From assembly GCF_037042905.1 (NCBI RefSeq), contig NC_087250.1, positions 8,558,001-8,622,000 of the forward strand: DNA of 64,000 nucleotides. The letters run 5' to 3'. The notes under the pieces were generated by a model. It worked only from the letters and a program-made list of their open reading frames with translations. It was not told the DNA's origin and did not search any database. Position 1 is the stretch's first letter. The number at the start of each line of letters is the position of its first letter. This stretch comes from Lytechinus pictus. Its lineage: Eukaryota. This document shows, one piece after another, positions 2,627 through 62,745 of this stretch. A program made the translations under genes and the position numbers.

Positions 2627-2838
2627 TTATACAGCTTTATTGTCTCCTCGCTTCTTGCATCTGCAACAGATCGCGATGACGATGATCAGGAAGATGACGG
2701 CGAGGATGACCACGACGACGACGATGATGATATTATTTTGTTGCTTCCACCAGGGGACGTCTTCGTAAATTTCGCACAAGGACGACTCCTCGCTATACTC
2801 ATCATCATCATCATCATCATCTTCGGATTCCACATCCC
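2627..2838 (-). CDS. Paralog A last coding exon: acidic stalk, TM helix, tail CCRCKKRGDNKAV*
   Basis: ttgcag| acceptor; poly-Asp stalk; long Ile/Val stretch followed by basic stop-transfer residues; homologous to B 48084-48283. Confidence 0.88.
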
Positions 2839-5800
2839 CTGCAATATTGAAAAAACGGGGGTAAAATGTAGGCATATGGTATTCCAAGAAAAGCAATAAT
2901 AATAATGATAATAATAATAATAATAAGAATGATAATAATAATGATGATGATGATGATAATAATTATGATAATAACAATAATGATATTGCCAATAATACTA
3001 ATAATGATAATATTAACAACAGTAATCATAATGATGATGATGATAATAATAAAATTAATAATATTAATAATACTGATATTAATAATAATGATAACAGCAA
3101 TAATAATAATAATAACAATAGTAATAATAATACAATAGTAATGTTATGGATTGAATACAGATTTTAAAGGGATACTCCATGATAACAGATCCGACAAAAT
3201 CAGACAAACAAAAGACTGAAAAGATTATGAAAATTGGAAAATGCAAGAATCAACATGGGCCTACATGTAGTTATTTTCTACTTCAGGAAGGCATGCAGTT
3301 GTATGTATGGTTCCATAGGTGAGCTGATGATGAAATTTCGCTCACTATTTTATATTCTTTTGAATTTTATCATAACAAACAACGGTAAGTAAAACTTTGT
3401 ATTTGATCATAACGAATTACGTTTATCATTTACTAATTTTGTTTTTAAAAAGCAAAAAAAAAAAAAGAGGAAAAATAGTATTGAACAGTATAGTATACTA
3501 GCAATACAAGCTTTCTGAAATCAGCATTATCAATTGTATTGTGTCTACGGATTAATTTCCACTTATTGAGACCAAACAAAGATTTTTCATATTATACCAA
3601 AGATCAAAAAGAAATCTACTACTTTTTCTCAATGCCAATTAATGTTGCATCAAGAGTTAATAATGAATGAGAAATTGATGAAAACATGTGATATAAAAAT
3701 GAATGACTAGTCACGTGATTTATTTCAGCCAATCACTTGGTTAGGATCCAAATTTACATGTTACAGCACGTCATAATAACCGATCCTACCGTGACACGTG
3801 ATGCCGTCTCCACCCATGAAAAACCCTTCTGCGCAGGTGCAATAGTATCCTCCCACCGTGTTCATACACACGCCGAATTCCACGTCACAAGTGATGTTTT
3901 CACATTCATTGACATCTTGGCAGTATCCTGCGGCGTCTGGTCTGAATCCCTCGTCACACACACAGCTATACATGCCGTTCCTATTGACACACTCGCCGTT
4001 GTCACAGTGGCTGCAGTTTTCAGGAGCTTATGTAGAAACAAGGGGGGGGGGCAACTATATGCATTACATAAACTGGACGGAGCAACAATAACGCGTTGTT
4101 TTGAGGTTACCGGAAACACTTAGAAGTACTTCAAACAGTCAAGCGTGTGCAAAATTCCATACTTTCATTTCTCTCTTGTGTGTAAGTTCTTTCATACGAT
4201 TGGTATGGTCCTATATACTGTTAAATGTGTCATGGGTGCCAGTACACAGCGATATATGTATTCATTTTTTTTCGATGGGAAATCCATATCGGAAAAAGGG
4301 TTATCAAAAGGGCTAAATCAGATGATTAAATAAATGCAATATTAGTGTTAATTGCCAGGTCCGACCTGGAGAAATCCCCAATGGCACTAGGATCATCCTT
4401 TAAAAAAGAACCCAAAATCGCATATCTTAAAAAAAAAACCGCTAGTGACTACTGTTATTGTCTAAAACTCTTTTATTTACCTTTAGAAAAATTGGTTCAA
4501 ATCATTGCCCGAAAACCGATTACCTCGTTTTTTTTTCTATTTAGGTTTCAACATAGCCAAATTAGGCGGGGAAACTGCGAGTTGTCAAGGTTTATTTCCA
4601 ATTGGTCTAATGACAATTTGTCTAATTACCAACTCGTCTATTATCATTTGGTTTATCATCAATTCGTCCAATGTCCACATGGTCTAATGGCCATTTCGTT
4701 CACTCATCATTTCGTCTAACAACCAGTTGGTCCAATAGCCATTTAGTCCATAAACCCTTTGGTCTAATCGGATAAATTATTAGGCGAAAGGAATGAAAAG
4801 AAAATGGGTATTAGGCCAACTGGTGATTAGAAGACGTTATTATTGGACCAAATGGGTCTTAGACAATATGTTGATGGATGGAATGGCATAAGACTAAATG
4901 AAGGAAGACCATGTGGTGTGGTGACCATAAAAGAACTTAAACACAAGAGAGAAATAAAAGTAGAGTTGGCAGTAGACGAACTGGCAATTTACCCCGTGTG
5001 TTGCATATGATTCATCTTCGTGTGTGACACGTTTGTTACGATCTTATGAGCGACTCGGGCTTAACCTGCAACTTGCCGGGTAAGTTCGCGAAAAAGTGTT
5101 CTATTGCAAATAATAATGTACACGCGCGCACTGAATGGGGAGTTTGTGCGAGAAAATCGCGTCAGTAAATGGTACCACCAATTTTCCATAAAATACGTAT
5201 TATTGAAAGAATCGTACTATATCGGTTATGTAATGTTAGGGAGTAATTATATAATTGCGGGCGTGAATTTATACAATCTAATACACTTCATTCGATATAT
5301 CTACAATCTCCATGTAATATCGCCAACAAATAATGGTACCAAACAACACAGATGCAGTGCGCGCGCACACTGGACACATTTTCAATAAGCTAGGGAGCGA
5401 GTTACTCTATAGCAGCAGTTTACAGTTTAAGACCGTAACACACGTTGGTATGTATTGATGACCACAGGTCTTGGTTTGTACTACATTTGTCAATAGGGAG
5501 TTTTCGCAACCACTACGCAGACGCTTCCTTGAACGTTGAGAACCTAATGCAAAAAACCCTTCATATCAGAGAAGCCTTTGTCGAATATCGTTGAATCAAA
5601 ACAGCAGTGCCGTCCTTGACTCTGCACGAACGACATACACGTAACTTTTCGTCAGCTCCGATTCATAGGACGATGTACGTGCTGTCCCGGTTCACCAATT
5701 CTCGACAATGACCTCTCAGCGTTTTTCAGATTTTCAACGTTCTACAGAAAGGGCTGAGTAGTGATTGCGAAAACCTCGTCATTGAACAGTGTGACATGAA

Positions 5801-9209: not shown

Positions 9210-9262
<53 letters not shown>

Positions 9263-9279
9263 TACTACTACTACTACCG

Positions 9280-9342
<63 letters not shown>

Positions 9343-12300
9343 TTACTACTTCTACTACGACATATACTACTTCTACGATCACTACTACTATACTACTACT
9401 TCTTCTTCTTCTACTACTATTACCACCAAATCTACTACTACTTCTCCTAATACTACTTCTACTACTACTACTACTAGTTATAATAATAAGGAAAGTAATA
9501 CCTAAGCACGTGACGTTATCGTCTGCAAGGAGGTATCCGCCTTCACATCCACACACAGCCGATCCATTGACGTACAAACATACGCCACGAATATAATCGC
9601 AAGGGTAGTGTTCACCGCTTGCTTCACAAAGATTAGTGTCTGCAAGAAAACGAAATAGAAGTGCCGTGGCCGAGGGGTTTAAGGGGCTTAATAGGAGACC
9701 CTCGGGTCGGGGGATCGATTCCCATCACGGTACTTATGCCCTTGAGCAAGGCATTTTTTTCCCACATTGATGTTGTATCGTACATGAAATAAATGAAAAT
9801 GCCATATGCATTATGAATACCAATCTGTGGACTTGTTAAAAAACAAACAAACAAACATGGAATCGATGGTGGAGCTTACAAACGTAGAGGGCGTCAACAC
9901 TGCTGCGAAATATTGACGCCCCCTACGTTGGTTGATGGAGCCACAGAGGCTTCACTGAGACGAGGTTCTGACCCCCCCCCCCCCCCGTGGGTTCAAGTCC
10001 TTCTCTGGACGTCAATTTCCTTCAACAAGATTTTTAGTCATATTCTGCTGCAGTCAACCCAGGTGAGTTAAAAGGGAGGCCCTAATTGTATTTTATCCTA
10101 ATTGATTACAAACCAATGGAGATTTCAGAATAAATCTTTGAAATTCAAATAACCGTCGGAATTTGAATGGTCTGTATTGACAGTCAAACTCAAATTCAAA
10201 TTCAAATTTATTTATTTCACTTCTATCAAACAAAAACAAATTGTATACCATATATAACCATAAATATTGGTATCCGTTGCAAAAAAAAAAAATAATACAT
10301 ATGTTGTGAAAAAAAAACACTTAGACAATTTGGGCAACACATTGTAGGTTTTAAATATGTATACTATTTTTCAATAAAAATAAATTAAGATGGAAATGGA
10401 GGGACCCACTAAAAAGCAATGCTTGTACAAAGTGGGCCCCTCAAAAAATAGATAACACAACAAATAACAAAATAACAAAGTACAAATACAGATATATGTA
10501 ATCAAATGAGAAAAAAAAATAAATGAGAGATAAATAATACTCACAAAATAAATACGAAGTTATCAAAAAATATAGTTTGATATAGGACAAAACAACCCGT
10601 CCTAAAATATATCCACCCTTCCCCACCCCACCCCCCAGAAAAAGAGAAGAAAAAAGGGGAGAATGCCCTGAGAAGATGGATGGGTGCTGCTGAACGTAGG
10701 TAGAATATATGCCATCGTGGACTCAAGCAAACGGGGTCCGGTTTCAAATAACTTGTTATGATAACAAATTTCCAGCAGCAATGCAAAGCTAACAGAAATC
10801 ATCTCATATCATTGGCTGATAGTAAATTTGTTATAAAAATTGTGCATTGTTTACTATTATCATGATCTATTGCAAAACAGAACCTTAGATTTATCTTTAA
10901 AAAAGTTTTATATATTTTTTAAGGCCTACTCACGGGTATGGGGTTCAACTGTCGCTCCACTGCCCGTGCCGTTCCCGGTGAGATTCGTTGCGACACACTC
11001 ATAGTTATATATTGTACTGACGCACTGAAGGCCAGGCTCACAAGGCGATGGATGGCACAAGTCAACTTGAATATAGACATAATATTTACAGAAACGAGTA
11101 ATGACATGATTAATTTTTACAATAATTATAAGTTGATGATAGAGTATTTTTTTTAATCTGACGATATGAAATGAAAATATACTATTTACCATGTTTATGG
11201 AAAAAAAAATAGGCCTGGGAAATGTTCCCATGTTGTCTGTATAGGTGTTTCTCCTTTTATTGATAAATATCAATTACGCGTTCACAATAATGACTAAACG
11301 GACAAACAAATCAAATCATTGATCGAATTAAAAACGTGACATTTACAGAATAGTAACGATTAAAAAAATAGGCTACAAGGAAGAGCAAATAATTGGGATG
11401 CAGTGGGCAGCTATGGTAAGCAAAAAACTCGAACGAATAGCAGCCATGTTTAGCTGTGACCAGGGTCCGTCTCATAAAACTTCTTATAATAACAGCTTTG
11501 CAATAACAGTTAATAGATATATACTGAAATCCTTCAATCTGATTGGCTGATAGTAAATTTGTTATAGAAACTGTGTGCATTTGTTATTACAACAGGTATT
11601 TTATGAAATGGGTCCAAGAAGTGTAGCGGATTTGTTGGTGATTTTGAGTTTCATTCTTTAGTGACTATTGGGTGATTCCATGCTAGAAAAATCAGCCATT
11701 TTCACATCATTTTTCAACCTGCTGTCCAAACGAACTAAGAACTTCAATTTGCTTTGTGGTAATATTAATGTACTACTGGGTAGACATGCCAAAAAAAACA
11801 CCCAACGAAAATATGTTGTCCATAGGTGAATTAGAACTTAAAATATTGCGTGTCGTACGGGACATTTCTGCGTCCCGTGTGACACACAACATTTTCACCT
11901 ATAATCTACCCATAATAATTTTTTTTTGTGTTGGTTATTAGTTTTTCACGTGACTACCCACTATAGCTTTACCATTGACAAAAGAGAATATTTTATTGCT
12001 TAAGCATTCGGCTAGGAAACTAGAAATTGTTGTCAAAATGTCCCGTACGAAACGTATGGAATCGCCTTATTACGACTTTTGGTACAACATAGAAGAAAAT
12101 ATTTGTTTTTTTTATGTGAGAAAAAATGTCCCGAACTATGACCAAATAGTGTTTTCAATCACTTCATTTGCTCGTAAGCCACATTCAGATGCACACTCAG
12201 CATTTTTACTTGTTCACCCTGCATCTTGAGCAAGATCAAATAAACGCTCTCATATCACTCCAATCTTGAATTCGCTGCACTGGCACCCTATAAAAAATCG

Positions 12301-15300
12301 GAATATTTAAGATTGTTGTTGCTTGCTTTTCATAGTATTCTTGGATGAGCACCACAATGCAGTCTTTCATTTATCAATTACTACAGACGAAGCAGGTCTT
12401 TGCGCTCTTCCACTTCTGGCTTCCTTGTTATTCCAAAAGTTTCAAAAACTTGGGGGAAAGATCATTTGCTTCCTGAAGACATTAAAAAATGTTCCTCTGT
12501 CGAAACTGTCAAAAATCTTTTTTATTTAACTCTTAGCTTTTTATGCGCCTTGAGCACTCTACAGAGTGGATTCGGCGCTTTATAAGTCACATTATTATTA
12601 TTATTAACACGATTTGATTTACACGATTTTTTACCACGCGTCCAGAAAAATAAATGTGATGTCATCGCTTCAGTTATCTACACTGTTATAAAAATTCTAC
12701 TTAAAACCCCCCCAAAAAAATTCCTGCAGCAGAGTCTCAAGAACACCTGTTATCTTACTGCACTGTGTCATTTTACATGCATTTGTGTAAAATTAAAGAA
12801 AATTGGTATTTGGTGTATGTAACCTTACAGACTTATTGTAATAAAACTGTTTTCCCTTTTCTTAAACAGGCCCGTTCTGTGAAAGTGTAAAAAAATCTTT
12901 CCTGTTATAACAATTTACATAATGATTTCGTTATTTCTTTCTGTAAAATCTGTTTTTTTACTTTTCTTCTGTAAAGTTTTCTGTTTCTAACAGTGTATCA
13001 TTCGATATAAATTAGATAGAGCATGATATCCCTTTTTTCGACCTACCACTCTCGTTGATGAATACTTTCATACGCAGTATACCGGCCAAGCTCTGATGTT
13101 CCCCGTTTACCGGTATGGAGTCAGAAAATCCGGATCTTACATGATCCAACAGGTTCAAATAACCGATCCCACCTCGCCCGATATCGACCCAGTAGAAAAT
13201 ATCGTCGTATATCAGAATCTGTTCGACATATCCTAGCTCTATCGATATCGTTGTCACGATATTCCTCACGTGTTTCACGATATCGTACATCTCGATAGTG
13301 CGATCGTGGTTGATCCAAAACAGGTTCCCGTCTGCAAAAGTGTAAAGAAAAAAAAAAATCACAATTTAAATGATCCTAAACCTGAAGACACAGCCGAAAG
13401 GGCCAGAAGAAAGAAGGGCAAAGAGGCCGAAGGAAGTGGCAAAAATTATAATTTGACCAAAAATGATTACATTAACCGACTTCTACATTGTTAAATCTAT
13501 TGGGTAAAATTTTAACCAACACGAGGGTCATTATGTGTCCAACCAATTTGGGGCAATATTTCAACCAATGCGGGAAGCATGTTGTCCTGTAAGGTTAAAC
13601 AAATAAGCAGCATTTACTTTAGAATGGGCAATATTTTCATCACACTGGATAAATAAAAATGCCCCAAAGAAATTCCCAATGTTGGGTGGACACATAATTA
13701 CCCTTATGGAGCATTTTTGCCCAATATTTTTTGCAGTGTATTATTTTCTATGGTTACACTCTGTTTTCCCTAATGTCTTTAAAGGACAAGTCCACCCCAA
13801 CAAAAAGTTTGTTTTAATAAAAAGAGAAAAATCCACCAAGCATAACACTGAAAATTTCATCAAAATCGGATGTAAAATAAGAAAATTATGACTTTTTAAA
13901 GTTTAGCTTTATTTCACAAAACAGTTATATGTACATCCTGGTCGGTATGCAAATGAGGAGACTGATGACGTCATCCACTCACTTTTTTCTTTTGTATTTT
14001 ATTATATGAAATATTATAATTTTCTCTCCATTGTCAAGTAAAACAAGGATTAATTCCTCCCTGAACATGTGGAACTAGCCTTGTTTAGTGCTATTATGGT
14101 TCAGTCAAGTTGGACCTCATTGTCAAATCTGAAAAAAATGAAATATTGTTTAATTCAAACAATAAAAAACAAAAGAAATAGTGAGTGATGGACATCATCG
14201 ACTGACTCATTCGCATGTCACCGAGTTGTGCATATCACTGTTTTGTGAAAAATAAGCGAAACTTTAAAATGCCATAACTTTCTTATTTTACATCCGATTT
14301 TGATGAAATTTTCAGCGTTATGCTAGTTTGATTTTTTCTCTATTTATTCAAATATTGGGATGGACTTGACTTTTAAAGTGGTGAACACAAAAAAAAATTC
14401 AGAGGGAGGTAAGGGAAGAATGTAGAAAAAAGGAGAGAGGCGTGTGTAATCCCTGAGGCCTTTGCAAACATAATGACATAGGCAATCTTATCTCCCCCGG
14501 CCCTCTCCTTTCAAAATATACTTGTGCCATCCATGTCTGTTATTGACCTGTATTTTCGTTATTTTTTTTCCAGGAGGGTGTTCCACAAAAGGTCAAGTGT
14601 GAAAATGAGAGTCAAGCCAACGCGCACATGTCATTTAACGCGTTATCTGGTTGATTGATATGTATAGTGCGCGTCCCGTTCGCATTATCTGACCAATAAG
14701 GTGATGCCTTGTATATAGCGCAGGAAACTGAAATTGAAGTTCGACTCTACGTCACACTTAAATGTTTGTGAAACACTCCCTGATCTCCCTTTTTTTTCTC
14801 TGTGTTGCGTAGCCCCTTGCCCCCGTAGCACCGCCCCTTGATTCCACATAGTGATTAACAAACGTAGAGGGCGTCACGTCTTTGCCGTTGTTGCTTCCTT
14901 TTACGTCCGTTGATAGTGTTCTTACCCTGCGCGTTTCTTGTGAATGCAGTGACGTTTACAAGATCCTCATCGACAAGACTTTTTTTGCCAGTTCCATCCA
15001 CGTTCATTTGCATGATGCTATCCCCCTCGGAAAAATAGAGCATACTAGTAAAAAAAAGTAAGAAAAAAAAGGAAATGATTATCGTTACGCGTATTTTCGT
15101 GCAGGTATGTATGCCTTCGCCACAATATGTTTGCACGGAGAGGTCCGATTGCTACGTACAATGTACAAGTTAATTTCTTTTGGTTCCCGCTGGGAGAGGA
15201 GGGGCAGAGTCCTTAGTCTAAAAATGAACCTTGTAACCCTAACCACTAGCGTTCCTAAGAGGGGAGGGGCAGGGGGGCCAGACTGCCCCCCTGACGAGTC

Positions 15301-28791: not shown

Positions 28792-28799
28792 AATTTTAC

Positions 28800-40905: not shown

Positions 40906-41431
40906 AAGTCAAGTCCACATCGAAAAAATGTTGAATCAGACAAGCATAATGCTGAAAATTTCGTCAAAATCGGATGTAAAATAAGAAGTAGTTATGTCTT
41001 TTTAAAGTTTTGCATTTTCCACAAAATAGTTATATGCAGAAGTTAGTCACATGTAAATGAGAGAATCGATGATGTCCCTCACTATTTTTTTTTGTTTTTA
41101 TTGTTTGCATTATACATAATTTCTATTTTTGACAGATTTGACCAACTTGACTGAACATAATATGTTTAACATTGGTTATTCCACAAGTTCAGGGAGAAAT
41201 AAAACTTTGTTTCACAGGAGAATGAGGAGAAAATTAGAATATTTAATATTTCATGTAATAAAATAGAAAAGAAGTAGTGAGTGAGTGATGTCAACAGTTC
41301 GCTCATTTGCATAACGACCGGGATATGACATTGAGCGGAGGTTTTTTCTACATCCGATTTTGACGAAATTATGTTTGTTAAATTTTTCTCTTTTTATGCA
41401 AACCAATTTTTTGTTGGGATGGACTTGTCCT
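40906..41431. mobile_element. Kolobok-type TTAA element nested in another repeat
   Basis: Splits a copy (about 40520-41480) of the repeat found at about 2120-2560 and 60600-61066. Confidence 0.75.
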
Positions 41432-48083: not shown

Positions 48084-48283
48084 TTATGCGGCTTCATTGT
48101 TTTTTTCTTTTCTCTTGCATCTATAGCAGACGACTACGATGACGATGCTGGTGATGATGATTAAGAGAACGACTATGGTGATGATGATGATGATGTTCCT
48201 CGGCAGCTGCCATGTGATTGGGTCGTCGTAATTATCGGACACGTTGGTCTCAGTATCGTCGTCGTCATCCGTTTCCAAATCAA
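48084..48283 (-). CDS. Paralog B last coding exon: acidic stalk, TM, tail CYRCKRKEKNNEAA*
   Basis: cctcag| acceptor; homologous to the last exon of A. Confidence 0.88.
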
Positions 48284-51200
48284 CTGAGGTGAGTGAAATA
48301 TTTTTTGAGAAGAAACAAATGATAATATCTCATTGGTGGTGGTGATTAGAAAGAAATAGTGAGTTTTCGCAATTGCAACGGGGACGGACTCTACGACATA
48401 GTAGATCTATTAAAAAAGCCCCTAAGAGCTCCATGCACAGCTTAGAGGTCTTTGTCGAAAATTAGTGATCGGGACGGGTATTGTTCTGAGCTGAGAAAAA
48501 AATAGCAAATATGTCGTATGTCCGGAGTCATGGGCGACACTATTGATCTGATTTACCGATTTTCGACAAAGAATGCTTTGTCATGAACGGCTGTCGACAA
48601 TAGATGCTCTTCGTCCCAGAAAGCGTCTGCGTATAGTGGTTGCAAAAGCTCCCTAATGATTTCAGGGGCCGCGGTGAGGGTGTGTATGCATTGGCGGAAA
48701 TCACAGGGGGGACACGTCCTCCCTACCCAAAATAGTAGGGGGGACACAATATTAAATGTCCCCATACTATTTTTGGTCTTTTATGATGGAAAGAAATACA
48801 TCATTCAAAATCGAAATAAAACATGTATTTTGGACGAGATGACCTTACTTTTTGGGTGATAACCTTTTTTTGCTTGTCAAATTTTCCAGCACCTGGTCCC
48901 CCTACCTTTGGGGAGAGATTTCCGCCCTTGTGTGTATGTGTGTTAAGGGAGGGGGGGGGGTGGCCACTCAAAAGACACACAATCAAATGGTTATTTATAC
49001 GTTTTATACACGTTTATTGAAAATATCAATTTACCAAAATATTTGGATTTTAATTTTTTTATTTTTTTTATCTTCAACATTGTTGGCGAGTGAGTTACGG
49101 TTGTTTCCTTCACCTTTTACAGGTATTTGGGGGGAGAACTCACGGTAAACATGAAATATACAGGAAGTGAAATCGATTTTCCTTTTCTTAATCATTTCTG
49201 GCTTCCCATAGTTTTAGCACAGACTTGGTCCTATATACTCTGGCCGACGTAGATCCAGTTGATAATACGGGCAAAAGAATTCGGAGTAACACAAACTTAC
49301 CAGTTTCGCACAATATCCCTTCGATATCATCTGGGCAGAAGCACTGATTGTCCGTACATGTGCCATTATTTTGACAGGTAATTTCGGTACAGTCCACTAT
49401 GGATAAAGGGTTTATAAGACGAAAATGATGAAAAAAAATGGTAAAACTCAAATCTAAAATTGCTACAATTAATAAAAGTTTGAAGGAAGAAATGACAGAT
49501 TTCACAGAGAGGGGTAAGAGACATGTTAAAAGTTAGAAAACCGTATATGATGCAAATATTTTAAGTGCATGACGTCATGACTTTTCATGTTAGAAATATA
49601 TACAGAAATATTTTTTTCATATATATATGTACAAATCAAATTCAATTCCAATTTATTTACATTTTTGATAAAAAGGAAAGAGAATTAACAGAAACAATGA
49701 TAAAACAATGATAACAGCGTTGTCAAAACATAGCATGAACGTTGACCCAAAAGAACCAGAACACAGAATCGATATATTTTGTGAAAGACACCTATGACGA
49801 AACACGGATATTACCTTGGCACGTGAATCCGTCCCCAACTGTTATAAAACCAGTCCGACAGGTACAGTAGTATCCTCCTTTCGTGTTCACACATACGCCA
49901 TATTCCGGGTCACAAACAGAACTTTGGCATTCATTTATATCTTCACAGCGTTCATCTCCGGCTAGTGTGAACCCGCTGTCGCAGATGCATTTATAGATGC
50001 CGTTGGCCTCGATGCATTCGCCATTGTCACACTTCCGGCAGTTTGCGTGGACTTAGTGAGAAAGGGAGAAAGTGAGAGAGAGATAGAGGGGAAAGTGATT
50101 ATTAATAGATCATTAGAATAAACATTAATCAAATGCACCTTTTATCCCTTCTGTTAAAACAATTACAAACAATAAAAAGGGTAATTTAACACATGTTGAA
50201 GGCGTGAACAGTCTTTTCCAGGTAAGCCTAAAATTGAAAGAAAATGGACAACTAATAATCAATTTCATGGATAAATATTGCATGGATACACTCTTTTGAG
50301 GTTCTTATCTTTGCATAGTGCATTTGAAAGAAAGAAATATGTGTCATGATTTGAAACCAGTTTTGACGCACGTTTGCTCACTCCCTGCCCACTGTGCGAA
50401 GCAGAACAATAACTTTCTCCATAAATGTCATGAAACGTGTTTTCACCTATCAAAATATTTTGCATTATAAACGTGCAAATGATTTTTAATCAATGAAATG
50501 GAAGACGAGTAAAAAGGGTAACATACCTAAACACGTGACGCCATCAAATCCAAGAGCGTATTCCTCTTGACAGTCGCAGAGGGCTGATCCGTTGTTGTTA
50601 TGGCAGATACCACGCATCGCGTCGCACGGGTAGTCTTCACCGCGTAAACCACACGGATTCAATCCTGGTGGTTATATCAGTAAATAAAAAGCTCAAGAAG
50701 TGTTTATAAGCGTGCCTTATGAGGCGTTGCGAGAAACGTGCGATCAGTTGCAAGTCTATTTTAGGCCCTTAAATCATTAATTTATAAATTAATAATCAAC
50801 TGTTAATGACTTTGAATTCATTTGGTTTATTTCATTTCAATATTTACACTTTTAACATAAAAAAAAAAAAAATACAAATTAATCAAGCTTACACTTTTAA
50901 ATTGGTAACAACCCAAGTGGGGGGGGGGGCGCTTCCATTGACGAATGGATACCATGCGCGACCATGGGGTCTCGAAAAGCACCATAAACACGTATTTTCC
51001 ATCTTCTGAAAATGCACCCCTTAAAGGTCAAGTCCACCTCAGAAAAATGTTGATTTGAATCAATAGAGAAAAATCAGACAAGCACAATGCTGAAAATTTC
51101 ATCAAAATCGGATGTAAAACAAGAAAGTTATGACATTTCAAAGTTCGGCTTATTTTTAACAAAATAGTTATATGAAAGAGCCAGTTACAGTCAAATGAGA

Positions 51201-54200
51201 GAGTTGATGACGTCACTCACTCACTATTTCTTTTGTTTTTTATTGTTTGAATTATACAATATATCAATTTTTACGAATTTGACGATTAGGACCTCCTTGC
51301 CTGAAGCACAAAATATTAAAATAATGGAATTCCAAGTGTTCAGGGAGGAATGAAACTTCATTTCACATGACAATGATGAGAAAATACAAATATTTCATAT
51401 TTCATATAATAAAATACAAAAGAAATAGTGAGTGAGTGATGTCATCGACTCTCTCATTTGGATGTAACTGGCTCGTTCATATAACTATTTTGTTAAAAAT
51501 AAGCGGAAATTTGAAATGTCATAACTGTCTTATTTTACATCCGATTTTGATGAAATTTTCGGCATTGTGCTTGTCTGATTTTTCTCTTTTTATTCAAATC
51601 AAGTTTTTGTTTGGGTGGACTTGTCCTTTAACAAGTATCGGCGTGTAAAACCCTACCCTTAACAATTATTGGAAACAAAACGATACTCATGGCAATTATT
51701 CCCTGAATTGGACCCCTAAACAAGTACAGTGACATTTTAATCGGTCGTCGGTTTTACCTAATTTACCTACATCATTGGGTTTAGTACAGCCCAACCTCCC
51801 CACACCTCGCGCAAATCGTACTCTAAACACGTAGTGTTGACTCTCGGGGAAAAAAGTACATCCTTTATAAAACATTTTAGCCTCAATTTTTTTACCGTCG
51901 CAAATTTGACCCTAAACACGTAGCTTTCCTAGCGAAAATAGATACCCTTTTTTTCATTATCTCAGTGTTTTAAACACCCTTATTATGTTCCGTACGTAAC
52001 GTGCCCAATCTTGAAAAAAGACATAATTTTTTCGTGTTTTTTTTTTGGTCGCGCATGGTATCCACTCGTCAATGTAAGTGCCCCCCCCCCCCGGGTAACA
52101 ACAATACAAACAATATACAATAAACAAAAGTAATTGATAAATCAAAATCTTTTTAAACGTAATTAAAGTATATAAATAGTTGTCTATGTATGCCAAAAAA
52201 GAAAGAAAAGATATGAAAAAAAAGAGACCAGCTGAGAAGCGAGGCTTGTATTGTGATTGATTAAGGATCAAAGATTGTAATCTGGAGCCCATCTTACAAA
52301 GAGTTGTGATTGATCCAATCAATCGCAACTATGGAAAGCCAGCAAAGCCAACATATATAATGCATGTTTGCTCAAAAATTTCTCTACATATGAATGTATA
52401 TCCATAAAATAATTGATTACTTGACAATTTGGTGTGATCTTTGTTTGCCAAGGACATTTTGCAAATTTTCTGTACAAAAAATATGACACTGATATATTTC
52501 CCTAGGATTCTATACGATTGATTGGATCAACCGTAACTCTTTGTAAGACTGGGCCTTGATTTGCTCCAGCTAAAATTTAGTTATCACTTGTAGATTTGCA
52601 ACATAATATCTGGAGTTGATTGCTAATATTTAATATTTTTCTACGATTGATTCCATAGACTACATTGTACAATCAATCGTGAAAATCAAGCGTACTCCGT
52701 CCTGTGGAAGACCACTGAAAGACTTAAAATTGGTAAGGTCTTACAGCGGTCTTCAAGATCACTGAAATTTGTCATCTCTGTGGAATGGCTCAGAAGACCC
52801 CTCAAAGTACTTTGAAAGACTGATGGATATTTCTTGTCTTAGAGTTGTCCTATAGAGATCTTTTAATGGTCTTTCAGAGATCTTGTATACAACAAGTGAT
52901 CTTTCAGAATTCTTTCCATGGACTTTGCCTGGTCTTTCATTGATCTTGAATGATCTTTCAATGATCTCTCAAGAGTCTTATAGTGATCTCCGCAAAAATC
53001 TTGAGAGACTGCCGAAAGATCATTGAAAGACTATTAAGACCATTGAAAGTTCATCGAAAGACCACTGAAAGACTGCTGAAAGATCACTTAAAGACCATTT
53101 TCCTGTCAGACCGTTGTAAGACTGTTTGGAACCGTTTCAAACAGTTTTGGAGCCAATGAAGACCACGAAGACCACTGAAAGATTAGTCAGGACTCGTGTA
53201 AGACCTCAAAGACCATTGTAGGTTTATTGAGAGACCTCTGAAAGATCAACCAGAATTCATGGTCTTTCAAAGGTCTTTCAGCGGTCTTGTTCTCTGTGGA
53301 ATAACCTTTGTGTTAAGAGACCAGATCTGGCCCGTTGCAGAAAGAGTTGCAATGAAGCGCAACTTGATTTTCAACCAATCAACAGCGCGCATTTGGGACT
53401 TGTGATTGATTTTTTGACTTGCGTTTAAACGCAACTCCTTCTGCAACGGACCCCTGAATCTTTGTGAAACGCCCCCTTTCCCGATCAAATCAGATCATAT
53501 CAAATCACACTTAAAAGTGAAGTAAAATCATGCCTATTACAACACATCAGCATCAAATATTTGAATCAGATAAAATCACATAAACCCATTAAACCAAAAT
53601 CTCATAAAATTAAATCGAATCTCATCAAGATTACAAATGCTTGCTCTTACCACCGCTATTTAATGATGTTGTATTTCTCCCGGCCAGTGGCGTAGACAGG
53701 TTCGTACACCTGGGGGGGATGACTGGGCTGCCAACGCTAGTGAGGGCGCGAAGCGCCCGAGCGAGGGAGCGAAGTGACCGAGCGGGGGGAGGGTATGGGA
53801 GGGGGGTGTCCCCCCTCCCACGGTAGGGAGCTTTTGCAATTTTGAACTTGAAATCGTGCAATCTGATGCATACTTAATGAGGTAAAATAACACACACAAG
53901 CGCGCACGCACACACACACATAATCACACACACACACACACACCCTCACACACACACACACACACACCCGTGCGCGCACCACACACATACTACGCCTTGA
54001 ATGGACAGACATACATCGACAAGATCTACACACCGTGGCATATGAATACAGAATGGACTGACACATAGTATTGCATATTGAACCACACTACGTATTTATT
54101 TATCTCTGTGAATTTTGCTGTTACACCTCTTCAGAAAAAAACCAATGTCAACTGTGTACACGCAGGTATAGTCTTTGTTGTCTTGATATGGGTATGTGGT

Positions 54201-57200
54201 TATGAATGAAAACAGCCTCTGTGGCCATTTGTGAATAGAACACATAAACAACAAACAAATAACAATATGTCTGTTCATTATAAAGCATAATGAATACGTA
54301 CATACTATGCTTTTTTTTTTACCTCAAAGAAACAGGCATAGTATCCATAGATGGATATTGGCTGCCGGCTCATTAACATACAGATACAAAAAACATAAAA
54401 ACGGTATCACTATGATCCATGGAGTAACAATACTGCTTTGTAAGTTTGTGAAGAAATCGGAACCATAACGGCTAATAACAATAAACACAATTACAATAAT
54501 GAGGATTATTATTATCATCATCATAATTATTATTATTATTAATATTATAATCGTTATCATTATTATTATTACTATTATTATCATCATTATGACTTATTAA
54601 GTAACCAAATATCATTCCCCAAAACCTGGGGGGGGATGATTGTACATGCCATCCCCCCCACCTTGTGAGGTGGGGGGGATGCATCCCCCTCATCCCCCCC
54701 GTTGTCTACGCCCCTGCTCCCGGCATTGTTGCTGTCGGTGCTGTTGCCGGTGTTGTTGTTGCTTGTGTTGTTGGCTACGCAGTTGTATTCGAATCTGCCA
54801 CTAACACAGATGAGACCCTCTTGGCATGGAGATGAGCTGCAGTAGTTGACTGCCACATAAGCAGATAAGAAAGACATTTTCAAATGAGGACATTACCAAT
54901 AACATGTAGTATTAGCCTTTATTCATATAGACGAGCTCCAGTAGCCGACTGCCACACAAGCAGATAGGAAAGACATTTTCAAATGAGGGCGTGGCCAATA
55001 ACATGTAGTATTAGCTTTTATTCATAGACGAGCTGCAGTAGTTGACTGCCACATGAGTAGATAAGAAAGACATTTTCAAATGAGGACATGACCAAATAAC
55101 ATGTAGTATTAGCTTTTATTCATATCAAAATTCAGAGATATCAAAGATGCGAGAACAGGAGCATCGGGGAAAAAACTAACTTAATACATGCAGTGACCTA
55201 CGTAAGTCTTATGGGGAAAGACTGACTTAATACATGCAGTGACCTACGTAAGTCTTATGGGGGAAAGACGGACTTAATACATGCAGTGACTTGCCTAAGA
55301 CTTGCGTAAGTCTTATGGGGAAATACTGACTTAATACATGCAGTGACCTACGTAAGTCTTATTAGGGAAAGACGGACTTAATACATGCAGTGACTTGCCT
55401 ACGACTTGCGTAAGTCTTATGGGGAAAGACTGACTTAATACATGCAGTGACTTACGTAAGTCTTATTGGGGAAAGACGGACTTAATACATGCAGTGACTT
55501 GCCTACGACTTGCGTAAGTCTTATCGGGGAAAGACTGACTTATTAAATGCAGTGACTTGCTTAAGACTTACGTAAGTCTTATGGGGAAAGACTGACTTAT
55601 TACATGCAGTGACTTGCTTAAGACTTACGTAAGTCTTATGGGGAAAGACTGACTTAATACATGCAGTGACTTACGTAAGTCTTATGGGGAAAGACTGACT
55701 TAATGCATGCAGTGACTTGCCTAAGACTTGCGTAAGTCTTATGGAGAAAGACTGACTAAATGCATGCAGTGACTTGCGTAAGACTTACGTAAGTCTTATG
55801 GGGAAAGACTGACTTAATACATGCAGTGACTTGCCTAAGACTTGCGTAAGTCTTATGGGGAAAGACTGACTTAACACATGCAGTGACTTGCGTAGGTCTT
55901 ATGCGGAAAGACTGACTTAATATATGCAGTGACTTACGTAAGACTTAGGCCTACGTAAGTCTTTTGTGATAAACAAACGTAATTTCCGTTTATAGGCGAC
56001 TTTAACGGACATGTTCACAACTTTACCTTTAGTTTGGGCGATTCTGGATTCTTATTCTTTGTTACTCATTATTAAGATTTAATGTACGCAAAGACAGGGA
56101 TACCATTTTGGAATTCGCAGAGATAAATTAAGTATATCAACGATAGAAAAATGTAAGACAAATCTTTGAGTTCGACCTACCATGTTCGTCAATAAACACT
56201 TTCATATCCAGTATCCCCGCCAAACTTTGCTCGGTCCCACTCACTGTGATGTTTGTACGGAAGTCTTGATTGGTGGGATCGTTCAGGTGTAGATGGCCAA
56301 TCCCGCCTCGTTTATTATCTGCCCAGTAAATGATATAATTATAAACGACTATGTGCTCAGCGTAACCGATTAATATCGATATATTGGCGAGGGCGGTACG
56401 CACGTTGGTTTCCAAATTGTACCTCTCGACTGTTTGGCCACCGTTGATCCAGTATAGACAGTTATCTACAAGGAATAGAAGAAAAACAACACAACAATAT
56501 TGTCACTCTTTCTTGAAATTGAAATCTATTTCGGGAAATGGGGTAGGCTATGCCAACTGTTCAAAACCAATGGTAGGAGAAAAAAATCATGGTGTTTTAG
56601 AAATGACCTCGTGTTAGCCGATCGTGTTTAATGTGGAATTGATTCGTTTATTGTACAATAATATGAAAACTGGAAAGGAGCGATCCATATGATGTAGGCA
56701 CATCAATTAGCATTAAAAAGTTAAGAATCCTGAGAGAAATTTAGCACGACGTGGCCATTACACCATCCCCATAAAGCGCTCTTAATTTTTTTTTTTTAAC
56801 TCATGCGCTATTACATGTTTCTTTCCAATCTTCCTCCTCGTCTTTCATCTTTCTTCTTTGTGTGTAGATTTGATCATACTGTTCCTGTTCTTCTCGTTCT
56901 TCTTTTCCTCTTCTTCCTTTCTTTTTCCTTATTGGATTTGCTCTCAGAAAATGTAAAACAGTAGAGTTGTGCAAAACATGCAAACGAGGAAACGTCTACA
57001 AGGTGAACTTCAATGTTAGACTGATCGACTCATGTTGTCGCAAAATACAACCTTTCGTGTACTAGTAAACACTATCCTGTTTTCAGGAAACTGCCATAAA
57101 TGGAACTAACCAGGGGGCCGTTTCATAAAGCTGTTCGTAAGTTAAGACCGACTTTAAAAACGACTGGTTATACTTTCTTACGCGCTCAACCATCGCCAAT

Positions 57201-60200
57201 GAATATACCATTAACCATAAGAAAGGATCACCAGTCGCTCTTAAAGTCGCTCTTAACTTACGGAGAGCTTTATGAACCACCCACCAGTCCAATATGTGAC
57301 TTTCTCACGAAAGGTGGGGTAACGCGTTTACACGATCCGACGCGACTACCCGATGTTTTGAGACAAGCCCGTCCACCGACTCTTACCTTGGGCGTTTCTT
57401 GTGAAAGCAGTAACATTGACCAGGTCCGTATCAACAATGACCTCTTTATCTGTACCATCCACCTTTATTTCCATGATGCGATCTCCCTCAGAAAAATAGA
57501 GCTTTCTAGTCATAGACACATGGATGAAGAATGAAAAATGTACTCTTTCAGGGTGACCCATTCCCTTCCGGTATGACTTAAAAAAATAAAACTCGTTCAT
57601 ATATTGGTACCTCAACATTTTATCTTTACATCTTTATTTAGGATAAAAGAGCAATATTGATTAAATGCATGGCTCAGGGGCATAGGTGCCGTGGCCGGGG
57701 ATTGAACCTCAAACTTTCGCTTGTCTATGCAGGTCTATAGGCAGTTTATAATCACTCGCGTCGTGTGCGGGTTCGTAATCACTCGCGTTTTGAATTTTTG
57801 GCGATTTTTTTTTTATTTCGGTGCGATTTTTTTAAAACGGTGTCTTCAATGGGACAGACATGCAGGGAAAATAAAATGAAATTGAAATTCGAGTTTCGTT
57901 TTAAGCCGGCAATTAAGTGCCTTAAAATGAAATGTACTCGACTACTGTTTTAACATAACAAACAAGCAAATCAGCCATGTGGCTCAACTAACTTAGAATA
58001 GATCGGGACTTCTACTGTGTCTTATACGAGGACTCCGAGTCGGAACTTGCCATATCTGCCACACCGATATTACATCGTATCATTCCCATATGCGGACATG
58101 CCTGCATGCAATGGCCCCAAGGCGGCCGGACCCGGCCGCGGTCGGACACGACGTGCATCGGTAGCATGGAGCAAGCTAACGTGAGTCGAGCTGAGTTAGA
58201 TCCCACGTTATATATGAGGCGCCGATTGTACCAATATTATATAGAACAATTATTTGTTATATAATCATTATTCATTAAATAATAAAGCAATATTGACTGA
58301 CCTCGGGGCGATACGACATATATCGTCCAAACTAGATTTATATCGCCCGAGTCGTAGACGAGGGTGATATCAATTTAGTGAGGGCGATATGTCCTTTCGC
58401 CCCCAGGCCAGTCAATATTGCTATTATTAACCAAATCAGACATCTAGAGCAAAAATCGTTAAAATTTATATATTTTAAATTTTTAGAATGAGAATCTAGT
58501 TTATCAAGTTGAGCAGACTGGGCCTCTGAACTTTACCATTGTGACGTAATTGAAATGATGCGTCCCTGGCCTAGGGACGCAGTATCCATTATTATGACGT
58601 ATAGCACTGCGCGGTTCAAGGACGCGTGCAAAAACGCGTAGAATACCCGGATATTAGCGCTGCCTTTTATTGCCCGCTACATTTCCACGCATTTTCTCAT
58701 TCACTTTCCTGAGCGGGCAATAAATTGGGCCCGTGGATAAACAATTGGAATTTTATTGACCGGCCATTTGATCCCAGTCTTAAGCAGGCAACAATGTTTC
58801 AAAGTTGCCCTGCTCAGATGTCTGATACGTTTAATAATAACTATTATCACCCGTATCAGACATCTGAGCTGGTCATTTACAAAACCGCATTTCCCTGTAT
58901 TTTATTATTATCAGGAAGGGATAGGTATATTGTTTGTATTTTCCTCGGTTTCTATGCGCGTATTGACTTTGCATGCAGAGACGACGCAAAATATACCTTT
59001 GTATTTTCCCTGGTCTCACATCCGGGCCTTTGAGGATGCGAATGAAGTGATACGCTTCATAATGTTCCGCGCACCAACGATCTACGTCATAATAAAGACA
59101 ACGCTGGATCTGGGCGCTTGCAAGTACGTCATAATGGTAAAGAGCAGAGCCTAGACACTGATATTATCATGACACAACAGAACTCTATTCTTAAAAGATA
59201 TCACTGTTATCATGATTTTTGCTTTAGATATCTGATTTGGATGATAATAAAAATATTGACTGCCCTTCTTTCGGGGAACATCAAATATATTGCCCTTAAA
59301 AGACCCATATTGCCCTCGTCTAAAAACTCGGGCCAATATGATTCTTTTGCTGGCAATATATTTGATGTTCCCCTCAAGACCAGTAAATATTATATAAATA
59401 TTTATATATAATTTACATTTTATTTGTAAATAATTACTATTATATAAAATAACATTTCTAATTATTTATATATAATTCCAAGTAATTGTAAAATGTAAAT
59501 AATAATAGTTCGACATTCCATTATTTATAAATAATGATTATTTGTTTTTCATTATCTATAAATAATAATTTTTGTGTTTCATTATTTATAAATAATGACA
59601 CTGCATACTTCATTATTTATGAATAATTGCAATTCGTTTTTTTTATTATTTATAAATAAGTTTGTCGAGTTTTCTATTATTTATAAATGATAATTATCTA
59701 TTAACAATGCCAGTGCACATTTGTTTATTTATAAATAATTTGTTGAGTTTCCCAATATTTATAAATAATGAAAATTCATCGTGTTTCATTATTTACAAAT
59801 AACATTTTTGTTTGAATATCCCATTATTTATAAATAATCATTATTTATAAACAATAGAATGTCGAACTATTATTATTTACAAATAATGAAGTATTACTTG
59901 GAATTATATATAAATAATTAGAAATGTTATTTTATATAATAGTAATTATTTACAAATAGAATGTAAATTATATATAAATAATAGTTATTATCTAATGAAT
60001 AATGATTATGTAACAAATAATTGTTCTATATAATATTGGTACAATCGGCGCCTCATATGTAACGTGGGATCTAACTCAGCTCGACTCACGTTAGCTTGCT
60101 CCATGCTACCGATGCACGTCGTGTCCGACCGCGGCCGTGTCCGGCCGCCTTGGGGCCATTGCATGCAGGCATGTCCGCATATGGGAATGATACGATGTAA

Positions 60201-62745
60201 TATCGGTGTGGCAGATATGGCAAGTTCCGACTCGGAGTCCTCGTATAAGACACAGTAGAAGTCCGGATCTATTCTAAGTTAGTTGAGCCACATGGCTGAT
60301 TTGCTTGTTTGTTATGTTAAAACAGTAGTCGAGTACATCTTATTTAAGGCACTTGCCGGCTTAAAACGAAACTCGAATTTCAATTTCATTTTATTTTCCC
60401 AGCGTGTTTGTCCCATTGAAGACACCGTTAGAAAAAAAATCGCACCGAAATGAAAAAAAAAATCGCCAAAAATAAAAAACGCGTGTGATTACCAACGCGA
60501 CGCGAGTGATTACGAACGCGAGTGAATATAATAAGCCGGTCTATAGGCGTCTTAAACCACTCGGCCATGGTTCCTACATGGAATTCTCATACAGAACAGT
60601 GGGTGCAACGAGCCAAAGTACATCAGGAGGGCTAAAGATATTCGTTCGACCCAACCCATTCACATTTTTTAAATTTGATATTGCTGATTGACAAAAATGT
60701 ATGAATTATGATTCCAAATCTAACACTGATTCTAGAAATGGTAATTACTGAACTTCCTTTGCCCAAATTGGGAAGATATATCAATGATTTGGAACTATTT
60801 TTTGACTGGCGGAAGAATTGGGGCTATTTTACTGTTCCAGTTGATGAATTTGATCCCATCATAGTTATCTTCATAAATGGTGATTTATTTTAAAAATGAG
60901 CTGGCTATGATACCCTTCTCTGGTCAGATATGGAATGTCAGATATATATCCTATCCAAAGGTAGTAAACATTCGACCCTCTAATTTCACAATTATTTTTT
61001 ATGAATTTTTCTTAAGTGCCATTTTAACACACAAGTCTATAGGGAATGTTTTACGCGCGTGACACCAGTGGTAATTCTCTGCGATCAGTGTCATTTCGCC
61101 ATCTACGACACACACTGGAGATGATGTCACTAGTTTATTGGCGACAAAGTACTCACTGGGCAGCGGAATAGTTAATCTTAATTGTAAAAAAGTATTGATT
61201 AGCGATTGGTTTATTACGGCAAACAGCTTTAAATAAAGGTTGGTGGTTCCTTGCTTGATTTATTTTCACCCTTTAAAAATGAGTTAAAAAAGAATAACAA
61301 AATAAACAGTCTAAACTTTCAAAAAACTGTAACATGTGATCATTGACCACCTTCCTCTCTCTCTCTCTCTATTTCTCTTCTGTATGATCAATAACAGTAG
61401 CTGATGTTATACGTGGGCGGCTCCAATTCATTTTAATAGGAAGCGGCAAGATATAAGCTATTTTTTACTCAATTGAATTAGGCTTCCATGGGTAACAGAG
61501 ATTTACATGACCTATACCTCTCTTTCTCTATACGATTCGTTATCCCTGTAAATCCTCTTTCTCGGGTTTATTTCACTGATTTAAACATATAAGGGGTGGG
61601 GCGCTCACTCTGCCCCCTCCCGATAGCTAAAATAAATATAAGTATATTGTTAGGATACTGAATAACCATAACAACAGACATATATATTACTCACCCTTTC
61701 TGACCGTCCGCGCTTAGTCCATATATATGCCTATCATTGTAGTCGATCCTTATCTTATTAGTCCCATCTAGTCTGATTGATGCCAAGATTCTTGAGACGT
61801 TTCCAAACCAGTAGATCCTTCGGTCAAAATTGTTGAAGGTGATGCAGAAAGGCTCTGGAAAAATAAAGAACCGAAGTGAACTCGGTTATTTCAAAGATGG
61901 AGCGAACTGATCAACACTTTGCGGTCGTTTTCACTGACAGCCAGTCTTAAAATATACATATATTTTGAGTTTTAAAAATAAAAAAGAAAAAAGATCAGCC
62001 CGTTTTGTAGAGACACTAACATATTTTTGAAAGAAAATGTACATGCTTTGCTACGCTAAATTTCAAACATAATTTTAAAAGTTTAATGAGAAATTTTCAA
62101 AATTCATTGCTCATGTTTTTTTTTGTTCAATTTCAAAATATTTGCTTATATTGTCTTTAAACACAATATGAACAATCGTTAGTTCATATTAAACCAGGTT
62201 GTATGAGATGTCTAACGGGTTGTTTATTTCTTATTCTGTACTGTGTAAATATAAAATAATTGCGTTTCTAGAATAGATCCCTGAGGGACTCCTCATATAT
62301 ACCTGTACAAAGGCCAAAACATCTGAGTTTGTGAAATTGTTGTGTAAAAATATGGGAATTAAATATTCAACGGTTGCTAGAAAAAGTGCTCGACTGGGAA
62401 TATTATGTAAATCAATAATTTCGACCATTTCCTTTCATCCGCACTTACACACGCAATTCAATTTTAACATGTTTAAAGGAACTGGGGAATATTACTTACT
62501 AACACCCGGAATGATGACAACCTTGTTTGGCACACCGTCCAGAACATCGCCTCCAATTTTATGCGGGGACCGCTGTCCCCATACCACCATATTTGTCACG
62601 ATGTCATAGGTCATGACCCCTGGTCGGTGGATAAATTCGAAGAACGCCCTCTGATGCAGCTGATCGGTCAGGAGCATTCCCGGTTCTATATCACTGTGGT
62701 ATATTCCGAAATTGATCTGGTCCACAAAGAAGACCTTGTCCGCGG
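48084..62745 (-). CDS. Paralog B (5'-partial, spliced): YWTD-like propeller + 5 EGF-like modules + stalk + TM + short tail; one exon is TE-interrupted
   Basis: Exons 62500-62745, 61695-61854, 57387-57505, 56181-56465, [54717-54849 + 53651-53676], 50527-50664, 49815-50051, 49301-49396 and 48084-48283. Lengths 246/160/119/285/138/237 are identical to paralog A. Confidence 0.85.
48689..48930. mobile_element. hAT-type MITE
   Basis: CATTGGCGGAAATC...GATTTCCGCCCTTG termini; 8-bp TSD TGTGTATG; related copy at about 40008-40312. Confidence 0.8.
49301..49396 (-). CDS. Paralog B-specific short EGF exon (96 nt)
   Basis: ccatag| and |gtaagt boundaries; VDCTEITCQNNGTCTDNQCFCPDDIEGILCET has 6 Cys; phase 1-1. 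Confidence 0.85.
49815..50051 (-). CDS. Paralog B EGF + cbEGF exon (237 nt)
   Basis: actaag| and |gtaata boundaries; HANCRKCDNGEC...DINECQSSVCDPEYGVCVNTKGGYYCTC. Confidence 0.9.
50527..50664 (-). CDS. Paralog B EGF exon (138 nt)
   Basis: caccag| and |gtatgt boundaries; LNPCGLRGEDYPCDAMRGICHNNNGSALCDCQEEYALGFDGVTCL. Confidence 0.9.
50912..52095. mobile_element. Same MITE family, inverted copy with a nested TTAA element
   Basis: Reverse complement of the 28238-28791 sequence, split at TTAA; flanks GGTAACAAC; a related partial copy starts at about 63784. Confidence 0.8.
51025..51627. mobile_element. Kolobok-type non-autonomous element (TTAA TSD, AGG...CCT termini)
   Basis: Host sequence GCACCCC-TTAA-CAAGTAT is interrupted with TTAA duplicated; long TIRs AGGTCAAGTCCAC / GTGGACTTGTCCT. 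Confidence 0.8.
52708..53289. mobile_element. Palindromic element built from AAGACCACTGAAAGA subrepeats
   Basis: Subrepeat arrays in opposite orientation in the two halves. Confidence 0.55.
53651..54849 (-). pseudogene. Paralog B 4-Cys EGF/linker exon interrupted by a transposon (pieces 54717-54849 and 53651-53676)
   Basis: Removing 53685-54716 and one TSD copy restores a 159-nt phase 1-1 exon: VNYCSSSPCQEGLICVSGRFEYNCVANNTSNNNTGNSTDSNNAGRNTTSLNSG|gtaaga. Confidence 0.85.
53685..54716. mobile_element. Non-autonomous hAT-type element (1032 bp) inside a coding exon
   Basis: TIRs CAGTGGCGTAGACA / TGTCTACGCCCCTG; perfect 8-bp TSD CTCCCGGC (53677-53684 and 54717-54724). Confidence 0.9.
54830..55125. 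repeat. Three copies of a 97-99-bp tandem repeat spanning an intron/exon junction
   Basis: Units start at 54830, 54929 and 55026. Confidence 0.9.
55166..55963. repeat. Minisatellite, 15 units of about 46 or 57 bp
   Basis: GGGGAAAGACTGACTTAATACATGCAGTGAC[TTGCCTAAGAC]TTACGTAAGTCTTAT. Confidence 0.9.
56181..56465 (-). CDS. Paralog B propeller exon (285 nt)
   Basis: ttgtag| and |gtaggt boundaries; CLYWIN...IIYWAD...QSLAGILDMKVFIDEH. Confidence 0.9.
57387..57505 (-). CDS. Paralog B propeller exon (119 nt)
   Basis: gactag| and |gtaaga boundaries; KLYFSEGDRIMEIKVDGTDKEVIVDTDLVNVTAFTRNAQ. Confidence 0.9.
57740..60537. mobile_element. Foldback-type element with about 700-bp inverted arms
   Basis: Arms are near-identical (the same 64-aa pseudo-ORF appears on both strands); 8-bp TSD GGTCTATA (57732-57739 and 60538-60545); AT-rich repeat core. 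Confidence 0.85.
58283..59397. mobile_element. About 1.1-kb element with hairpin-forming ends, nested in the foldback arm
   Basis: Absent from the opposite arm; terminal hairpins at about 58287-58421 and 59252-59391. Confidence 0.7.
61695..61854 (-). CDS. Paralog B propeller exon (160 nt)
   Basis: ttccag| and |gtgagt boundaries; PFCITFNNFDRRIYWFGNVSRILASIRLDGTNK (missed by the ORF track). Confidence 0.9.
62500..62745 (-). CDS. Paralog B propeller exon (246 nt)
   Basis: cggcag| and |gtaagt boundaries; ADKVFFVDQINFGIYHS...GVPNKVVIIPGV. Confidence 0.9.

Follow-up and report, generated by a model that had tools for sequence, protein, structure and literature searches.

Tandem genes for predicted propeller-EGF membrane proteins with minimal tails in the urchin Lytechinus pictus

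Results

Two paralogous genes on the minus strand

A 64,000-nucleotide (nt) stretch of Lytechinus pictus DNA (assembly GCF_037042905.1, contig NC_087250.1, positions 8,558,001 to 8,622,000 of the forward strand; hereafter the window) contains two tandem genes, here called B and A, for type-I membrane proteins composed of a six-bladed YWTD propeller, an array of EGF modules, a transmembrane (TM) helix and a very short tail. Both lie on the minus strand, and all positions are window coordinates; splice forms are based on DNA signals and on RefSeq models. Of 23 sequencing runs listed in a search with positions 2400-4100, 20 contain part of that sequence and none is recorded as RNA, which speaks neither for nor against these splice forms. 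A sequence-only reading of the window had presented the pair as lineage-specific receptors with identical exon sizes, four to five EGF modules, no LDLa repeats and no endocytic motif.

Six-frame translation and splicing place gene B between an ATG at 26542 and a stop at 2627, in nine coding exons (Table 1) whose introns all conform to the GT-AG rule (8/8). The spliced product is the 525-amino-acid (aa) protein that the earlier reading had expected; it has no internal stop and is identical to RefSeq XP_054757736.2 (P0005). A splice-acceptor-like sequence upstream of exon 1 suggests an intron in the 5' untranslated region (UTR). A hydrophobic open reading frame (ORF) at 30266 on the minus strand, considered as the signal exon, was dropped after 26542-26494 matched.

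Gene A runs from 62745 to a stop at 48084, with its signal exon beyond the window. Six of the eight exons shared with gene B are of equal size, and to that extent the identity of exon sizes holds. It fails for exon 6 (132 nt in B versus 159 nt in A, the latter counted as 54849-54717 plus 53676-53651, without an insertion described below), for the last exon (212 versus 200 nt) and for a 96-nt EGF exon found in A alone, no relic of which was detected in the last intron of gene B (best tblastx E 0.30).

The gene B protein comprises a signal peptide, the predicted propeller, EGF modules, a TM helix and a 13-aa tail, with blade pentamers beginning at residues 21, 70, 112, 154, 195 and 237. Since the first EGF has only four Cys in all six proteins inspected, the array contains three intact modules in B and four in A, including a calcium-binding one, rather than the four to five originally counted. 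The proposed short tail with juxtamembrane Cys is borne out in both genes, with three Cys in the 13 aa of B and two in the 14 aa of A.

Table 1. Coding exons of genes B and A and the insertion in gene A (window coordinates)
Feature	Position	Strand	Content
Gene B exon 1	26494..26542	-	ATG and signal peptide; 49 nt, 16 aa, phase-1 donor
Gene B exon 2	23290..23535	-	Blades VLFVD and VIWGQ; 246 nt
Gene B exon 3	16300..16459	-	Blade IYWFG; 160 nt
Gene B exon 4	14926..15044	-	Blade LYFSE and invariant N182-V-T sequon; 119 nt
Gene B exon 5	13047..13331	-	Blades LFWIN and FYWVD, closing strand; 285 nt
Gene B exon 6	10934..11065	-	Truncated 4-Cys EGF and glycosylated linker; 132 nt
Gene B exon 7	9502..9639	-	LRP-type EGF; 138 nt (PF14670 E 2.4e-6)
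Gene B exon 8	3790..4026	-	EGF and calcium-binding EGF; 237 nt (PF07645 E 9.3e-14)
Gene B exon 9	2627..2838	-	Acidic stalk with unpaired Cys477, TM helix, 13-aa tail, stop; 212 nt
Gene A exon 2	62500..62745	-	Propeller; 246 nt
Gene A exon 3	61695..61854	-	Propeller; 160 nt
Gene A exon 4	57387..57505	-	Propeller; 119 nt
Gene A exon 5	56181..56465	-	Propeller; 285 nt
Gene A exon 6, 5' part	54717..54849	-	4-Cys EGF and Asn/Ser/Thr linker; ends in first target-site copy
Insertion in gene A exon 6	53685..54716	-	1,032 bp, non-coding, transposon-like
Second target-site copy and gene A exon 6, 3' part	53651..53684	-	3' part 53676-53651, with GT donor
Gene A exon 7	50527..50664	-	EGF; 138 nt
Gene A exon 8	49815..50051	-	EGF and calcium-binding EGF; 237 nt (PF07645 E 3.6e-13)
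Gene A exon 9	49301..49396	-	Extra membrane-proximal EGF, not in gene B; 96 nt
Gene A exon 10	48084..48283	-	Acidic stalk, TM helix, 14-aa tail, stop; 200 nt

A degenerate YWTD propeller

The YWTD repeats are degenerate, since PF00058 was not reached in any of seven family proteins at E up to 1. Relationship to known propellers was nonetheless detected at the level of whole domains. The Strongylocentrotus purpuratus protein matches LRP6 with an E-value of 5e-19 (phmmer), and a propeller-only profile matches LRP2, LRP4, LRP6, VLDLR, LDLR, ApoER2, nidogen and ROS1 (45 sequences, E up to 1), with E-values of 2.3e-9 for VLDLR, 9.4e-8 for LDLR and 1.2e-6 for nidogen. Despite the missing PF00058 match, an Atlas feature search returns Ldl_recept_b clusters at 0.91-0.93.

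A structure model built from 42 sequences has block pLDDT values of 78-95 over residues 21-280. Among 48,161 chains, its best fold matches are ApoER2 (Z 29.5, root-mean-square deviation (rmsd) 2.6, 256 residues aligned), LRP4 (Z 28.7, rmsd 2.5, 251 aligned), LDLR (Z 28.4, rmsd 2.8, 258 aligned) and nidogen (1npe; Z 28.3, rmsd 2.6, 255 aligned), these four at 16-18% identity. The top 12 matches are all YWTD proteins (Z 24-29.5), at 13-18% identity in the structural alignments, and Foldseek concurs. The model cannot be trusted for the EGF stalk, where alignment to unrelated propellers left pLDDT below 50 at 313-382 and 414-485. Altogether, profile and model place the family in the YWTD superfamily, with a predicted six-bladed propeller homologous to those of LDLR, LRP and nidogen, in agreement with the six degenerate blades first proposed.

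Missing LDLa repeats and tail motifs

None of seven proteins tested contains an LDLa repeat. Scanning all six frames of the window with four LDLa patterns yielded no credible motif: the single match, on the plus strand, involves the loosest pattern and a stop-ridden frame. In gene B the signal exon joins the propeller exon directly and in phase; because gene A bounds gene B upstream, hidden LDLa exons are effectively excluded for this gene.

The tails are equally bare. NPxY and [DE]xxxL[LI] are missing from those of all eight proteins examined, from three species, and in every full-length model the stop falls 13-16 residues past the TM helix. Several isoform models exist in S. purpuratus, which usually implies transcript support for the short-tail stop. 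On both counts the claim that LDLa repeats and endocytic motifs are missing stands, and the family lacks the two core features of LDL receptors, LDLa repeats and a cytoplasmic NPxY or dileucine signal.

Family members and distribution

Orthologues of the same layout occur in two other species, L. variegatus and S. purpuratus, which puts the gene structure far beyond chance. Word-indexed searches yielded 4/6, 5/1,524 and 6/4,155 candidates, all from Lytechinus or Strongylocentrotus bar one weak EGF-type match. An exhaustive profile search matched 3,224 proteins at E up to 0.001; two family members are among the best 150 of these, a ranking by total score that goes down to 80 bits and below which single-propeller relatives (62-79 bits, cueball included) could fall. 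Bit scores are 528-546 for full-length family propellers and 62 for the best outside domain among the matches listed. As far as the databases reach, these results support a lineage-restricted family, as had been suggested.

A third L. pictus model (P0015) is recorded on a contig equal in length (28,517,652 bp) to that of P0005 and P0008 and appears to share it, and so it is very likely, as the earlier reading had surmised, that the array continues beyond the window. In L. variegatus two A and two B models lie on one 47.8-Mb contig; some of these may be haplotype duplicates. A single full A-type model is present in S. purpuratus, and an isoform of it (P0014) skips the last EGF (32 aa), which gives the B layout. 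A family tree of 10 rows, unrooted and without P0008 on account of its insertion-derived residues, cannot date the A/B duplication. One further model, P0001 (XP_054757310.1), has propeller exons of type A behind a front half of type B and is probably a fusion of adjacent copies; it suggests that an A copy lies downstream of a B copy in the assembly behind it.

RefSeq already models these genes under the automatic names pro-EGF-like, LRP1-like and LRP2-like. No paper on the family was found by accession, name or topic in a search of main texts, so proteome or transcriptome tables in supplements may mention it; the available portions of PMC10339998, PMC5521101 and PMC10662966 contain nothing on it. 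Lrp-like proteins of variable domain order are described in echinoderm skeletal proteomes (PMC5460417, accessible sections), under accessions that differ from those of this family.

Constraint on the propeller

Between A and B, the ratio of nonsynonymous to synonymous divergence (dN/dS) is 0.12 in the propeller exons and 0.36 in the EGF exons. In comparisons of L. pictus with L. variegatus, identity reaches 95% (B) or 92% (A) over the propeller and 86% (B) or 89% (A) over the EGF region. Over six proteins, 140 of 267 propeller positions are invariant, as are 36 of 147 EGF-region positions other than Cys. These comparisons give good support for purifying selection on the propeller.

The N182-V-T sequon is invariant. 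In an alignment to propeller 3 of LRP6, the positions of the pocket Arg and Asn are occupied by Tyr/Phe and Thr, next to this sequon; we infer from the alignment that they are equivalent to NxI-pocket positions. LRP6 N185 has been linked to NxI binding (PMC7585440, available text). Outside the propeller, the unpaired stalk residue Cys477 is found in type B of both Lytechinus species.

An insertion in gene A and repeats around the genes

In this haplotype, exon 6 of gene A is interrupted by an insertion with an 8-bp target-site duplication and terminal inverted repeats that agree at 13 of 14 nt. By its short inverted ends and 8-bp duplication, we take it to be hAT-like. It is missing from P0003, P0015 and P0167; because exon 6 is intact in models of a paralogue, of L. 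variegatus and of a second L. pictus assembly, the insertion is probably recent or polymorphic. Reading through it meets a stop inside the element, after the first EGF, and would truncate the protein ahead of the membrane anchor. RefSeq model P0008 spans the insertion by a predicted intron.

Other repeats accompany the genes. A gene A intron holds an inverted pair (57749-58285 and 59985-60512; 539 columns, 94% identical), separated by about 1.7 kb with AT-rich internal repeats, which looks like a foldback-type non-autonomous element. Tandem-repeat arrays occupy 54830-55125 and 55166-55966 in intron 5 of the same gene, and the first duplicates the exon-6 splice-acceptor region, thereby creating look-alike acceptors upstream. 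A family resembling miniature inverted-repeat transposable elements has copies at 28228-28796, 38873-39450 and 50919-52091, with inverted ends of about 45 bp; the first two are 92% identical, and the third holds a nested second element (about 51021-51631). A dispersed repeat occurs at 2116-2580, 60602-61066 and 40514-40907 (copies 93% and 77% identical); the copy at 2116-2580, about 50 bp past the gene B stop, is probably in the 3' UTR. The 21-kb spacer between the genes (26600-48000) has no convincing coding sequence: nine ATG-started ORFs of at least 80 aa are present, none protein-like by eye. Rfam gave no match in the window.

Discussion

Relation to known propeller proteins

LDLR, VLDLR, ApoER2, LRP1, LRP2, LRP4 and LRP5/6 share with the family a six-bladed YWTD propeller followed by EGF and a type-I topology. 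Unlike them, the family has no LDLa, NPxY or PPPSP; its only propeller stands at the mature N-terminus, is followed by a four-Cys EGF and has apparently changed NxI-pocket positions. Measured against LRP5/6, with four propeller-EGF pairs and PPPSP repeats, one propeller and a tail of 13-16 aa are left. Pro-epidermal growth factor, the origin of one automatic name, likewise combines an LDLa-free YWTD propeller, an EGF array and a TM helix; the family is half as long, has one propeller and a very short tail, and carries no EGFR-ligand-type module. Judged by defining features, the proteins are neither lipoprotein receptors nor growth-factor precursors, and their RefSeq names are misleading; the earlier view that they are not one-to-one orthologues of a characterised LRP or pro-EGF is upheld. 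Nidogen, a secreted matrix protein, offers a different likeness: its G3 domain is a single YWTD propeller used as a protein-binding module, which is C-terminal there and N-terminal and membrane-anchored here.

The layout itself is not new, contrary to what the sequence-only reading had implied. Cueball (Drosophila cue, CG12086, and arthropod orthologues) is a membrane protein of about 600 aa that combines EGF-like modules with LDLR class B repeats, as described in the accessible parts of PMC4321038 and PMC3127973. Arthropod cueball clusters in the Atlas are 593-596 aa long, with Ldl_recept_b in 99-100% of members and no Ldl_recept_a listed. The family reproduces this LDLa-free arrangement of class B repeats, EGF and TM helix in about 600 aa and departs from it in its minimal, motif-free tail. 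The tail of Cueball ends in a GGA-recruiting acidic dileucine (PMC3127973, available text), which is missing here, and PF00058 is matched in 99-100% of members of the Cueball clusters.

Might the family then be a strongly diverged Cueball orthologue that has lost its cytoplasmic sorting tail and serves in membrane trafficking or gametogenesis? The top two Atlas matches of the whole S. purpuratus protein are indeed "protein cueball" clusters (0.92, with 201 of 256 features, and 0.91), similar in length and without a listed LDLa family. However, that list also contains pro-EGF clusters at 0.90-0.91, which means that its order follows layout and not descent. The dileucine signal is absent from these tails, and the best single-domain scores among the outsiders listed (45-62 bits, in a list reaching down to 80 bits of total score, below which single-propeller proteins of 62-79 bits could lie hidden) come from amphioxus, sea stars and hemichordates. 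We consider orthology with Cueball unlikely.

Lineage-specific proteins of sea stars, hemichordates and amphioxus, among which these best scores are found (XP_038051798.1, KAI8503926.1, XP_006813888.1, XP_070538617.1 and XP_038058173.1), combine YWTD propellers with EGF or other modules and have no PF00057. Unlike the family, most have at least two canonical propellers, and their tails, where a TM helix is predicted, are about 86-243 aa long; they score about nine-fold below within-family values. PF00057 is missing from all eight near-scoring invertebrate propeller proteins examined, a set chosen partly for having no LDLa regular-expression match. The Atlas also returns a 572-aa chordate cluster with EGF and Ldl_recept_b. 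One of the sea-star proteins (P0097, XP_038058173.1, Patiria miniata) is an adhesion G-protein-coupled receptor with YWTD propeller repeats, EGF and HYR, an unusual combination.

A proposed tethered binding module

On balance, the evidence tilts towards type-I membrane proteins of a small echinoid family acting as tethered binding modules, in adhesion or as co-receptors, through a partner; the binding or co-receptor role proposed at the outset thus remains the best reading. Each protein carries a single, divergent YWTD beta-propeller, with three or four intact EGF modules as its stalk; gene structure and fold are well supported. The propeller, constrained and membrane-distal, would bind a conserved extracellular protein, be it a matrix component, a secreted factor or another receptor. 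YWTD propellers are described as binding proteins by their top face (PMC7585440 and PMC6966886, available sections). The tail of 13-16 aa, with only Cys and basic residues and no sorting or signalling motif, would not support internalisation or signalling alone. Because the tail is motif-free and the propeller is the constrained part, a tether, an adhesion molecule or a co-receptor working through a partner is suggested, much as the LRP4 ectodomain serves MuSK; at the neuromuscular junction, LRP4 can do without its intracellular domain (PMC6966886, available sections, citing Gomez and Burden 2011).

Further features can be fitted to this proposal. The juxtamembrane Cys cluster may be S-palmitoylated. 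Ligands of the Dkk, sclerostin or agrin type, which use an NxI loop, seem unlikely because the presumed pocket positions carry Tyr/Phe and Thr beside the N182 sequon. Type B may dimerise by a disulfide through Cys477. It also looks like a duplicate that became fixed as the short form produced in S. purpuratus when the last EGF exon is skipped.

Several observations weigh against the tethered-module proposal. Inferred top-face positions are not enriched for invariance relative to the remaining propeller positions (16/30 versus 124/237, p = 1.0) and lend no support to a special binding pocket. Synonymous divergence in the propeller is near saturation (pS 0.70), which makes its dN/dS a rough value. 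The alignment behind the structure model included 36 canonical YWTD proteins and biased the model to that fold, and an earlier model from five family sequences had a mean pLDDT of 47.7 and left the N-terminal blades unresolved; its Foldseek matches were not relied on. Finally, minor transcripts may end in a longer tail exon outside the window.

A more elaborate version of the tethered module seems improbable as a whole. Here the family would be an echinoid-specific minimal member of the LDLR superfamily, with a lone propeller whose replaced pocket is edged by an invariant N-glycan. Palmitoylated and tail-less, it would serve as co-receptor or decoy for a ligand of development or of the gamete surface, B being a disulfide-linked dimer and A a monomer, and the transposon allele of A would yield a secreted propeller.

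Cubilin borrows the tail of amnionless, and the proteins could in the same way be cargo-binding subunits of an endocytic complex that uses a partner's tail. A propeller-EGF unit of LDLR-superfamily ancestry and the lack of a sorting motif of their own would suit such a role. The proteins, however, have no LDLa repeats, no partner gene is seen in the window, and their own TM anchor makes a separate anchoring subunit unnecessary; we rate this possibility slightly below that of a diverged Cueball.

Very unlikely is a pro-EGF-like precursor whose shed membrane-proximal EGF activates an EGFR-type kinase, although the RefSeq names and the Atlas pro-EGF clusters (0.90-0.91) point that way and the exposed acidic stalk could be cleaved. 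EGFR ligands carry G-x-R-C, whereas the membrane-proximal EGF ends in G-I-L-C (A) or G-L-S-C (S. purpuratus) and gene B has no such module; moreover, the EGF exons are less constrained than the propeller, and there is one propeller, not two. Least probable of all is an immune or non-self recognition receptor that diversifies within an expanding tandem array: tandem copies, lineage restriction and YWTD motifs too degenerate for PF00058 in seven of seven proteins would fit it, but the current L. pictus set has only three gene models, and the propeller has a low dN/dS and an identity between Lytechinus species above that of the EGF stalk.

The family adds one case to the YWTD propellers shuffled into lineage-specific surface proteins of invertebrate deuterostomes, and with one propeller and a tail of 13-16 aa it is the most reduced form among the proteins compared. 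Should the minimal-receptor reading be true, a genetic model urchin would be a natural and tractable place to test what a lone YWTD propeller can achieve without LDLa repeats or a tail. If the proteins are co-receptors, L. pictus would offer a system for finding a new YWTD-propeller ligand.

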